Assembly (NCBI GenBank): GCA_036785375.1
Contig: JAWMAR010000084.1
Span: forward strand, 7,130,001 to 7,194,000
From: Leucoraja ocellata
Lineage: Eukaryota
DNA: 64,000 bases
Direction: 5' to 3'
The notes under the pieces are model-generated. The model was not told the DNA's origin. It did no database searches and was given only the letters and a program-made list of their open reading frames with translations. Of this stretch, positions 558 to 60,838 are shown piece by piece. Each line of letters begins with the position of its first letter. Position 1 is the first letter of the stretch. Position numbers and translations under genes: made by a program.

Positions 558-629
558 AACAGACAGACAGAGGAGAAAGCTGATAATGAGTGGTGGGGCT
601 GGAACAAAGCCTGGCAAGTGACAAGTGGA

Positions 630-728
630 AGGTACACAAAATTGCTGGAGAAACTCAGCGGGTGCAGCAGCATCTATGGAGCGAAGGAAATAGGCGACGT
701 TTCGGGCCGAAACCCTTCTTCAGACTGA
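630..728 (-). mobile_element. ~99-bp Penelope-derived mini-element with hammerhead-like core, flanked by 18-bp direct repeats
   Basis: tggcaagtgacaagtgga occurs at 612-629 and 729-746. The minus strand reads CTGAAGA-A-GGGT-TTCG-GCCC-GAAACGTC. Confidence 0.75.
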
Positions 729-1187
729 TGGCAAGTGACAAGTGGATACTGGTGAGGGGGAGGGATTTGGCAGATGAGTGGAGTAAGTCACAAAGACTAA
801 AGATCAAATGGAAACAAAAGAGTGTCAGATAGGAGAGAAGATGGGTGAAATATAAAGCTAGAAGGAGGTGAAACGGTGTTGAGAGAACACAATTTGTTTG
901 AAGGAGATTGTAATGTACAACAAGATACACCACACTATAACTGCAGAATTGTAGAGAAAATACAGCCTGCTTTGTTCTGTTGTTGGATTTCAAGGGGGTA
1001 TCCAGTGGCAGTGCACATCCAGGAATTCTCCAGTGGTGCTTCGATTTCATGATTGGGAATCGTGTTTGGGACTTGTGCTTTTGTGCAGGCATTCCATAAC
1101 TTGCATTACGAAGATAGGAAATGGTGCTGGAGAAAGTGATTGCTTTGGTGCTTCTTGAGTGAATCACATATCCTGATTATGTATTTT

Positions 1188-12139: not shown

Positions 12140-12483
12140 AAGTGAGGCCGCATGCAAATTGGAGAAACAACATCTCATATGTCGCTTGGGCAGCTTACAA
12201 CCCAGTGGTATGACTTGATTTTTCTAATCTGTCAGTTCCATTTTTCACATCCATATACCCCTTCATTGTCACCTCTTCCACAGCCAACAATGGACCATAG
12301 TGGGCTCCACCTTTCCTTGGTCATCAGTGCCAGCTCTGATTTGTTCTGAACCTTTTCATAACTCCAGTTTCCCTCCTTGACTCTCAGTCTGAAGAAGGGC
12401 TTTGACCCAAAACATCAACTATTCCTTTTCTCAAGAGATGCTGCACGACCACTGAGTTGCTCCAGCATTTTGTGTCCATCTTC
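12140..12483 (+). mobile_element. Penelope-like element 3' end (GIY-YIG C-terminus plus pLTR with degenerate hammerhead core)
   Basis: Translates KLEKQHLICRLGSLQPSGM, followed by a pyrimidine tail and cagtctgaagaagggctttgacccaaaacatc. Confidence 0.75.
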
Positions 12484-22125: not shown

Positions 22126-22222
22126 AGATAGACACAAAACACTGGAGTAACTCAGCAGGACAGGCAGCATCTCTGGAGAGAAGGAACGGGTGACGTGTTA
22201 GGTCAAGGCCCTTCTTCAGACC
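22126..22222 (-). mobile_element. PLE-derived mini-element inserted in a decayed antisense CR1 5'/ORF1-like region (~22010-22630)
   Basis: gacacaaaacactggagtaactcagc..cccttcttcagac, the same unit as 630-728; short cctt flanks. Confidence 0.65.
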
Positions 22223-25077: not shown

Positions 25078-25856
25078 TTTAAGAAGGAACTGCAAATGCT
25101 GGAAAATCGAAGGTAGACAAAAATGCTGAAGAAACTCAGCGGGTGAGGCAACTCAGTGGTGTGCTGGCCTTTATAAATCAGAGCATTGAGTATAGAAGTT
25201 GGGATGTAATGTTAAAATTGTACAAGGCATTGGTGAGGCCAATTCTGGAGTATGGTGTACAATTTTGGTCGCCTAATTATAGGAAGGGTGTCAACAAAAT
25301 AGAGAAAGTACAGAGGAGATTTACTAGAATGTTGCCTGGGTTTCAGCAACTAAGTTACAGAGAAAGGTTGAACAAGTTAGGGCTTTATTCTTTGGAGCGC
25401 AGAAGGTTAAGGGGGGACTTGATAGAGGTTTTTAAAATGATGAGAGGGATAGACAGAGTTGACGTGGAAAAGCTTTTCCCACTGAGAGTAGGGAAGATTC
25501 AAACAAGGGGACATGACTTGAGAATTAAGGGACTGAAGTTTAGGGGTAACATGAGGGGGAACTTCTTTACTCAGAGAGTGGTGGCTGTGTGGAATGAGCT
25601 TCCAGTGAAGGTGGTGGAGGCAGGTTCGATTTTATCATTTAAAAATAAATTGGATAGTTATATGGACGGGAAATGTATGGAGGGTTATGGTCTGAACGCA
25701 GGTGTATGGGACTAGGGGAGAATACGTGTTCGGCACGGACTAGAAGGGTCGAGATGGCCTGTTTCCGTGCTGTAATTGTTATATGGTTATATGGTTATAT
25801 CTATGGAGCAAAGGAAATAGGCAACATTTCGGGTTGAGACCCTTCTTCAGACTGAT
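25078..25856 (-). mobile_element. PLE-derived mini-element split by a CR1 insertion
   Basis: aaggaactgcaaatgctgg..ctcagcgggtgaggca (to ~25150) resumes as ctatggagcaaaggaaatagg..cccttcttcagactga (25801-25855). Confidence 0.75.
25158..25800 (+). mobile_element. 5'-truncated CR1, same subfamily as 7897-11377
   Basis: Highly similar to ~10730-11377, with an open ORF2 C-terminus and the (tatatggt)n tail. Confidence 0.95.
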
Positions 25857-27295: not shown

Positions 27296-27426
27296 TGTAG
27301 GAAGGAACTGCAGATGCTGGTGTAATCCAAAAATTTACACAAAAAGCTGGAGTAACTCAGCGGGTCAGATAGCATCCTTGGAGAAAAGGAATAAGTGATG
27401 TTTCGGGTCGAGACCGCTCTTCAGAC
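27296..27426 (-). mobile_element. PLE-derived mini-element
   Basis: tgtaggaaggaactgcagatgctgg..gtttcgggtcgagaccgctcttcagac. Confidence 0.75.
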
Positions 27427-28264: not shown

Positions 28265-29097
28265 AGGTAGAAACACGGAACTACATATACAGCGGACCTA
28301 GCAGCATCTCTGGAGAACATCTGGACTTCTATCTCATTCTCCCCTCCCACCTCCTCTCCCCTTCCACCTACGTTTCTTTCTCTAGTTTCACAATTAGCAA
28401 CTCTTCAATCCTTTTGTCTCTGGCCTTCTGTCTTTTCATCTCCAGCCTTTGTCCAACCATCTGCGTAAAAAAACCCTCACCCGTATTGATCTATTGCTTG
28501 CTCCTCTTTGACCTGCCTCTCCTCTATTCCAGCTTTTCTTTTGTCCCCCCACCACATTCAGCCTGAAGAAGGGTCCCGAACTGAAAAGTCAACAGTCCAT
28601 GTTCTCCAGAGATGCTGTTTGACCCAATGAGTTACTCTCGCATTTTTCCGGCAATTAGGAAGTAGTTCCATGTTCATCAGATAGGAACTGAATAAAATAA
28701 ACAGGAGAAAGTTCTCTGGCGAAATAATTATCACAAACATTATTCACCACCAAGTCTTCAACCATTTTTTATTAACAGTGAGTCAAGCAGCATCAGTGAA
28801 GGCAAAGGGATAGTCAATGTTTTGGGTAGAGACCTTGCATCAGGGCAAGCAGGTGTCCTAATGCAGGGTCACTACCTGAAAGGTTGACCATCTCTCTTGT
28901 AAAAACAAGGAACCACAGATGCTGGTAAATAACGCAAGAGGACACAAAGTGCTGGAGTAACTCTACAGGTCAGGCAGCATCTCTGGAGAACATGAAGAAC
29001 TCTGAAGAATAGCCTTGACCAAAAATGTCACCTATCCATGTTCTCCAGTGATGCTGGCTGACCTGCTGAGTTACTGCAGCACTTTGTGTCCTTTTGA
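28265..29097. mobile_element. Cluster of PLE 3'/pLTR copies, including inverted pairs
   Basis: Pyrimidine tail plus ctgaagaagggtcccgaactgaaaagtc at ~28563; inverted arms at 28940-28995 and 29035-29090. Confidence 0.65.
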
Positions 29098-46731: not shown

Positions 46732-46958
46732 AGTAGAATTAGGCCATTCAACCGATCAAGTCTACTCTGCCAGTCAACCATGGCTGATCTCTCTCTCCCT
46801 CCTAACCCCATTATCCTGTCTTCTCCCCATAACCTCTGAAACCTGTACTATGGGGAGGTTATGGTGAGAAGGCAGGAAAATGGGAATAGGAAGGAGAGAT
46901 GGATCAGCCATGATTGGATGGTGGAGTAGACATGGATGGCTGAATGGCCTAATTCTGC
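46732..46958. repeat. Fold-back of two inverted CR1 3' tails (~110-bp arms)
   Basis: agaattaggccattca..ccccataacctc versus gaggttatgg..tgaatggcctaattct, with an ~18-nt spacer. Confidence 0.85.
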
Positions 46959-53772: not shown

Positions 53773-53962
53773 CACACAAAGCTGGAGAAACTTAGCGGGT
53801 CAGACAGCATCTCTGGAGAAAAGGAATAGTTGACGTTTTGGGTAGAGCCCAGAAACGTCACCTATCCCTTTTCTCCAGAGATGCCTTCTGATCCAATGAG
53901 TTACTCCAGCTTTTTGTGTCTATCTTCGGTTTAAACCAGCATCTGCCGTTACTTACTACACA
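53773..53962. mobile_element. Inverted pair of PLE-derived units (hairpin)
   Basis: acacaaagctggag..gcatctctggagaaaagg..gacgttt versus aaacgtc..ccttttctccagagatgc..ctccagctttttgtgt. Confidence 0.8.
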
Positions 53963-59079: not shown

Positions 59080-59435
59080 CAAAGTGATGGAGTAACTCAA
59101 CAGGTCAGACAGCATCCCTGGAGAACATGAATAGATGATGTTTCGGATCAGGACCCTTCATCACATCCATGTTATCCGTGGATGCTAACTGACCATCTGA
59201 GTTACTCCAGCAATTTGTGTCTTTTTTGTGTAAACCCGCATCTGTAGTTTCTTGTTTCTATGCTAAGGGTAACATCAGCCAGCTGGATGATGATAAAGAA
59301 GCAGTGGAGAAGGATTGGGTGTTCAAAGTGAAAATCAGTCTGAAGTATGGTCTCGACCCAAAAGGTCACCCGTTCCTTCTCTCCAGAGATGCTGCCTGTC
59401 CTGCTGAGTTACTCCAGCATTTTGTCTCTGCTTTC
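59080..59435. mobile_element. PLE-derived units: inverted pair (59080-59260) plus a sense copy (~59335-59435)
   Basis: ggagtaactca..gcatcc / ggatgc..gagttactcc; cagtctgaagtatggtctcgacccaaaaggtc. Confidence 0.7.
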
Positions 59436-60703: not shown

Positions 60704-60838
60704 ATCAGACTGAAGAAGGGTTTCGGCCCGAAACGTTACCTATTTCCTTCGCTCCATAGATGCTGCCTCAACCGCTGAGTTTCTCCAACATTGTTGTCTA
60801 CCTTCGATTTTCCAGCATCTGCAGTTCCTTCTTAAACA
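60704..60838 (+). mobile_element. PLE-derived mini-element with hammerhead-like core
   Basis: CTGAAGA-A-GGGT-TTCG-GCCC-GAAACGTT at 60709-60737, followed by the standard unit. Confidence 0.8.

Follow-up and report, generated by a model that had tools for sequence, protein, structure and literature searches.

Short pseudo-LTR core copies of a Penelope-like element in Leucoraja ocellata as probable strong-stop-like products of internal reverse transcription

Minimal hammerhead ribozymes have been described in the pseudo-LTRs of metazoan Penelope-like elements (PLEs; Cervera and de la Pena 2014, PMC4209133), together with thousands of scattered single motifs per genome that were called 'probably related to truncated PLEs'. 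The accessible text of that paper does not name cartilaginous fish. The Penelope element of D. virilis has an internal promoter and its 3′ pseudo-LTR can drive transcription (PMC2377424), the RNA starting about 121 nt upstream of the end of an intron that abuts the hammerhead, and not at the hammerhead itself (PMC2377424, PMC4209133). In the green anole, the reverse transcriptase (RT) of the Poseidon element PAc uses two internal start sites, which leave an optional tail, and the protein needs RNA sequence beyond these sites (Frangieh et al. 2024, PMC11167929). The definition of a retrozyme rests on tandemly arranged units that each carry a hammerhead, and on circular RNA (PMC7229834; Li, Clavereau and Pollet 2026, 10.64898/2026.07.22.740005), and the supplements of the latter study, as its accessible text has them, include a cartilaginous-fish retrozyme set. 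At full-length L1 insertions, an extra G at the 5′ junction has been explained by the cap being copied (PMC4038843).

Here we describe a 99-bp insert in a 64,000-nt stretch of L. ocellata DNA (contig JAWMAR010000084.1, hereafter the window) from a genome of 3.44 Gb. In LTR elements, strong-stop DNA is a short cDNA that is primed internally and extended up to the capped RNA 5′ end. The insert is probably (at about 0.68) a product of a similar kind, a short copy of a Penelope-like pseudo-LTR core made from an internal RT start and completed by run-off at what we infer to be a capped 5′ end. Element positions are counted along the minus strand from 0, the A at window position 729, and the predicted cut lies before +34. 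The features of the locus are as follows.

630..728, minus strand: short Penelope-like pseudo-LTR core copy (+1 to +99), tail-less, 99 bp
612..629, minus strand: target-site duplication on the element's 3′ side, identical to 729-746; single copy in L061 and L067
729..746, minus strand: target-site duplication on the element's 5′ side; microhomology with the element over the last 3 nt; 729 is A0
747..862, continuing at 565-611, minus strand: interrupted host repeat, pyrimidine-rich, 70–82% identity to L250, L157, L261 and L061
696..723, minus strand: minimal type I hammerhead motif with boxes, bulge, stem II and palindromic ACGU, fitting the features in PMC4209133; cleavage predicted
630..634, minus strand: 3′-end site 1 of the bimodal 3′ ends, putative internal RT start
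721..734, minus strand: 5′-end cluster, −5 to +8, putative RNA start; 38/80 copies begin here

The 18-mers at 612-629 and 729-746 are identical and the match extends no further on either side, hence the coordinates and lengths given in the preliminary description (a 99-bp insert between perfect 18-bp direct repeats) are borne out. At two loci with related host repeats (L061 and L067) the 18-mer occurs once and is contiguous with both flanks, which makes it a true target-site duplication. The element matches this sequence too, over as many as 3 nt at the 5′ junction and 2 nt at the 3′, hence the duplication measures 13–18 bp. The host repeat at 747..862 is likely the 3′ UTR of an older related element. 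A decayed half unit at 123-165 on the minus strand, separated from the focal region by other repeats at about 200-560, is perhaps the far end of this older host element, which the focal copy interrupted.

On the minus strand the insert reads CUGAAGA (723-717), a bulged A (716), GGGU-UUCG-GCCC (715-704) and GAAA (703-700), then CGUC, with cleavage predicted between 696 and 695, after the C at 696. The CUGANGA and GAAA boxes, the UUCG-capped stem II and the palindromic ACGU are thus all at the places first reported for them. Stem II has a G-C closing pair, and the motif combines both boxes, the bulge, G10.1-C11.1, the palindromic 15.2-16.2 positions and UH as in PLE-type minimal hammerheads, except that helix I has 2 bp instead of 4–5 bp, in line with the earlier estimate of at most ~2 bp. 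Scoring against Rfam, which had been proposed as a check, gave no hammerhead family in a covariance-model scan at E ≤ 5 for the whole window or E ≤ 10 for 560-800. A PDB sequence search gave no match, and in monomer folding the minimum free energy structure was not the hammerhead fold and was not more stable than shuffles (z 0.79). A minimal-hammerhead descriptor matched 281 times in 1.03 Mb of genomic DNA, which was family-enriched by design, and 0–1 times in five shuffles. When 431 distinct copies were grouped into 10 subfamily clusters, the core and stem II varied in 3 of 19 columns compared with 32 of 62 downstream (p 0.008), so that the core is more conserved than its flank. The loop and fourth pair varied in 6/6 columns, and the 2-bp pairing of stem I was kept in 9/10 clusters. 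The motif therefore appears to be maintained across subfamilies, although this is modest evidence from sequence comparison, as all changes in the hammerhead are one-sided.

Immediately 5′ of the hammerhead, window positions 730-724 and the sequence upstream of them in long copies form a pyrimidine tract ending in CAG that, as in D. virilis, resembles a splice acceptor; genomic copies in spliced form were not seen. Splicing at this tract was considered and rejected, as the flanks are unrelated and share no upstream exon, and most starts retain part of the CAG.

The unit recurs elsewhere in the window, with 16 matches by blastn and 18 by nhmmer, including the following.

60705..60838, plus strand: second short copy with a ~35-nt tail, 90% identity to the unit
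22132..22221, minus strand: older-subfamily short copy, starts at +4 after G
27336..27426, minus strand: older-subfamily short copy, starts at +4 after G
59335..59425, plus strand: older-subfamily short copy, starts at A0
12384..12475, plus strand: older-subfamily copy with pyrimidine-rich sequence upstream
25799..25855, minus strand: first 57 nt of the unit, then other sequence
28558..28647, plus strand: decayed older-subfamily copy with pyrimidine-rich sequence upstream

All the further copies in the preliminary description exist, but the one at 60705 (60705-60803), which it called intact, has GUU and not GUC as its cleavage triplet. Two long inverted repeats in the window, at 46780-46913 and 53774-53917, score as miRNA-like hairpins below gathering, and the latter is an inverted pair of the 99-nt unit. 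The high copy number that had been supposed is confirmed genome-wide by 9,419 exact matches to a 27-nt piece of the unit. A 61-nt piece matches exactly at 2,178 places, and a C-rich tract lies upstream of 1,127 of these. Scaled from our sample, short copies of the subfamily anchored by the 27-mer number ~4,500 genome-wide.

The same 99 nt are found at the ends of elements encoding RT and GIY-YIG, and precede their ORF. Upstream of the C-rich tract, translations of long copies contain an RT with YIDD, a C-X4-C-X2-C linker and a GIY-YIG domain. Pfam searches of long copies gave RVT_1 (E 2.4e-5) and GIY-YIG (E 0.0017), both under the cut-off, and the first Atlas matches (0.96) carried HTH_animal/GIY-YIG/RVT_1. 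Linked long copies have RT followed by C-terminal GIY-YIG in one ORF, as in EN+ PLEs, and the ORFs seen were broken. Unit and tail run on into the ORF start at 259 genomic places, and at four loci (L261, L262, L263 and L271) the unit lies at both ends of a ~4–4.5 kb element, the arrangement of pseudo-LTRs or partial tandems. L271 is a whole element that starts at +4, without the C-rich tract. The complete elements L261–L263 begin upstream of the −5 to +8 interval, hence read-through RNAs must also be copied. The unit thus corresponds without modification to part of the pseudo-LTR core of an autonomous Penelope-like element, which by its predicted CX2-5CxxC linker is Neptune-type. Both the Penelope pseudo-LTR origin and the Penelope RT as motor, as first suggested, are supported.

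Two further groups of copies were observed. In nine ORF-bearing copies (L057-L060, L063, L065, L069, L073, L077) at least 1.5 kb of other, shared upstream sequence replaces the pseudo-LTR, possibly as they lie inside a larger duplicated unit. Many copies among L081-L110 are chimeras that combine unit, tail and 90–150 nt of ORF start with a piece of 3′ UTR or unit, which suggests that template jumps are frequent near +200 to +270.

Copy ends were determined in the 96 first-listed 27-mer copies, mostly from contigs C1-C6, which are not random draws; 16 of these were dropped for 5′ ends as duplicated loci or already in the 61-mer set (n = 80). The 3′ ends are bimodal, with 54/96 copies ending 0–7 nt from site 1 and 33/96 ending 35–38 nt further. 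These two sites, ~36 nt apart, correspond to the optional 30–40 nt tail of EN+ PLEs, and the tail is absent in 41/61 short copies. At the 5′ side, 38/80 copies start within the 14 nt from −5 to +8 at the hammerhead edge, 19/80 beyond −100 (plus L160, which has an internal deletion and was classed as long) and 20/80 inside the unit, six of them at the hairpin inversion point. This corresponds to a truncation rate per nt of 0.065 in the interval compared with 0.004 (+9 to +70) and 0.002 (−250 to −6), a 15–30-fold difference. Starts are spread over 14 nt, 37/68 are at pyrimidines, and the frequent start at +4 does not fall on a pyrimidine-purine step. Target duplications of at least 8 nt were detected in 32/49 non-inverted short copies but in 1.3% of mismatched flank pairs. 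The copies therefore share common endpoints and target duplications, as the preliminary description had expected, and have the fixed ends of a SINE-like family. Perfect fold-back inversions centred at +16, +34 and +37, which are short palindromes in the unit, were also seen (L179, L205, L231, L347-L353). A second, weaker 5′-end cluster (7/80; e.g. L150, L157, L184, L198, L206) lies at −140 to −106, where the ORF stops and the C-rich tract has its far edge. The CAG abutting the hammerhead is ~120 nt downstream of it, a spacing like the start-to-acceptor distance of D. virilis, but this cluster shows no G excess.

Seventy copies include the tail-ORF junction, and 19 of these reach +8, of which 11 stop in the interval (10/16 without duplicates). 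This fraction is similar to the 38/60 among all copies reaching the interval, an equality that counts against an RNA start at the hammerhead edge, since a stall depending on sequence would predict it equally well. In six copies (L093, L097, L102, L110, L141, L211) the short unit is joined to a piece of the ORF start, hence the RNA being copied carried the ORF, as expected if RT ran off and then jumped back onto the same RNA. Four RNA runs, which are fragmented or single-cell, dominated by host transcripts and of unconfirmed organism match, showed no pile-up of molecule beginnings or ends, and the loose read ends at these borders are host transcripts carrying copies. At L273:967-1114, ~80% of unit reads were on one strand in two single-cell runs, and reads were balanced in two bulk runs.

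A further signature was detected at the 5′ junction. A G precedes purine starts (0, +3, +4) in 20/31 cases compared with 6/32 at truncations elsewhere (Fisher p 3e-4), and the element itself has C or A at the base before these starts. Pyrimidine starts had a preceding G in 9/37, and no G excess was found at +34 (2/8) or +37 (2/11) starts. Among the first 100 listed genome-wide matches starting at +4, counted by eye, the preceding base was G in 49, T in 38 and C in 13; the same count in the first 100 listed +4 starts of an older second subfamily (2,476 matches) gave G64/T20/C16, and a scripted count of 30 loci per subfamily gave 17/8/5 and 19/8/3 (G/T/C). G and C are equally common in the genomic DNA sampled. 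The upstream flanks of +4 copies are mutually unrelated (mean identity 0.26–0.28), hence the extra G does not come from a master variant. A variant of that sort, with an upstream G, does occur (L035, L121), but few long copies have it, and it cannot account for the +4 signal. In young G cases with a duplication, the G lay outside the duplication in 5/10. An extra G before purine starts is as expected of RT run-off at a capped RNA 5′ end; alternatively, it could reflect untemplated C addition at any run-off end.

We propose that the element has an internal promoter from which RNA would start at the hammerhead 5′ edge. The GIY-YIG domain would nick the target and RT would initiate at +99 or +134, in the way shown in vitro with the anole element. 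Initiation in the first repeat of the RNA would then give a cDNA of ~100 or ~135 nt, often with a C gained opposite the cap, and initiation in the downstream repeat would give long, variably truncated copies. The hammerhead would be a passenger only and would not set the copy ends, and tail-less copies such as the focal insert would probably be dead on arrival. Points that count against this proposal are the spread of the starts, the many pyrimidine starts with few preceding Gs, the complete elements that begin upstream of the interval, the different start position in D. virilis and the lack of a pile-up of molecule beginnings in the RNA runs. With a little less confidence, we consider it likely that about half of this family's insertions are target-primed "strong-stop" cDNAs, which begin at the internal RT start of the mRNA and end at its own capped 5′ terminus. 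The genome would thus record transcription start at the first nucleotides of the hammerhead, which would account for the masses of solo minimal hammerheads known from animal genomes and give a SINE-like class without a non-autonomous master.

The pile-up of 5′ ends might instead reflect ordinary truncations, caused by RT stalling or cDNA trimming at the edge of the ~110-nt upstream C-rich tract. Few truncations fall within the tract (2 events, 0.001 per nt), a second peak occurs at its far edge (7/80), and the equal stop fraction of ORF-linked and other copies also fits. However, the tract lacks ~6 events, compared with 38 present in the cluster, any overrun into it would place C and not G before the start, and the far-edge peak has no G excess (1/8), hence we regard this explanation as improbable. 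We give slightly less weight again to a SINE-like family, whose short units would have their own transcripts from an internal promoter, which the Penelope protein would copy back in trans without cleavage. Defined ends, target duplications and copies in the thousands agree with this, and the 3′ pseudo-LTR of D. virilis can drive transcription; such a transcript would give the same product. Yet the short class shows no private variants and no diagnostic changes of its own lineage (38 short compared with 19 long copies, a small sample), variant ratios were equal in a second set (8:14 compared with 7:13), 41/61 short copies have no tail, and the anole protein requires RNA beyond the start sites (PMC11167929).

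Much less probable is that hammerhead cleavage of tandem or circular RNA sets the inserted monomer, as in retrozymes. The motif is intact, across subfamilies it varies less than its 3′ flank, 2/80 copies start exactly at +34 with just one other start in +17 to +58, and raw genome-wide pattern counts were 742 at +34 compared with 435 at +37. Cleavage-defined 5′ ends were therefore promising at first, but fell once these loci were classified, as host- or jump-flanked starts made up 8/30 at +34 and 11/30 at +37, corresponding to about 200 compared with 160; a weak signal of a small contribution of cleaved RNA at +34 is left. Furthermore, the main start cluster precedes the predicted cleavage site by ~30 nt, so the DNA copies are not bounded by the cut, and the units are not permuted there. 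The focal copy is solo and tandem units are rare, with a second same-strand core within 330 nt in just 7/129 copies, which departs from the tandem units, each with a hammerhead, that define non-LTR retrozymes. Anole hammerhead mutants also leave insertion unchanged (PMC11167929). The retrozyme reading is thus largely refuted for the main short class. The suggestion of a separate retrozyme-like family mobilised in trans is not supported, given an unmodified piece of an autonomous element with no private variants, few tandems and 5′ ends off the cut site. The least probable explanation is random 5′ truncation of full elements. It fits the 19/80 long copies with variable starts and the Penelope-typical inversions, but for the short class it is refuted by the 15–30-fold higher rate in one 14-nt interval, the endpoint comparison by which the preliminary description had proposed to tell the two apart.

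If strong-stop-like copying is correct, thousands of insertions report directly, and in vivo, where the RNA begins and at which two sites RT starts on it, connecting the in vitro finding of internal initiation from 2024 with the solo minimal hammerheads that were puzzling in 2014 and arguing against cleavage as what defines the inserted unit. This bears on how Penelope-like elements convert RNA into pseudo-LTR structures. Counting 5′ ends and the preceding base is applicable to any genome with Penelope elements, and we caution that fixed ends alone are insufficient to file such copies as retrozymes or SINEs.

Neither the element nor its hammerhead is of a new kind, as the literature already contains both hammerheads within Penelope repeats and solo copies scattered through genomes. 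A run-off class with a cap signature was not found in the literature searched (repeat databases and several supplements were outside its scope), and the boundary signature of fixed ends and extra G is apparently unreported. The following comparisons refer to the cited papers as far as their accessible text goes. The hammerhead is like those of PMC4209133 in its boxes, the bulged nucleotide before stem II, G10.1-C11.1, the palindromic 15.2-16.2 positions and the lack of helix III, but has a stem II of 4 bp and a stem I of 2 bp, the latter shared with a D. virilis variant. In contrast to the solo motifs of that study, the single copies here are shown with fixed 5′ and 3′ borders and the extra G. 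With the Neptune clade (Craig et al. 2021, PMC8557442) the parent element shares the RT, the CX2-5CxxC linker and the C-terminal GIY-YIG, as well as partial tandems, inverted 5′-truncated copies and the tail. Clear target duplications of 8–18 bp distinguish the copies here, and the likeness is one of linker and layout. PAc of the green anole (PMC11167929) likewise has two internal RT starts, an optional 30–40 nt tail and a hammerhead that lies near the ORF start and is dispensable for insertion; the element here differs in its Neptune-type Cys linker, and the accessible text of that paper describes no short run-off class or cap signature. Animal non-LTR retrozymes are similar in their type I hammerhead and in being non-coding, pseudo-LTR-derived and dispersed as monomers, whereas the copies here are mostly solo, identical to the autonomous repeat and not bounded by the cut site. 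Unlike the strong-stop DNA of LTR elements, the short product here would have nicked target DNA as its primer and would integrate alone. With full-length L1 insertions (PMC4038843) it shares the extra G at the junction.
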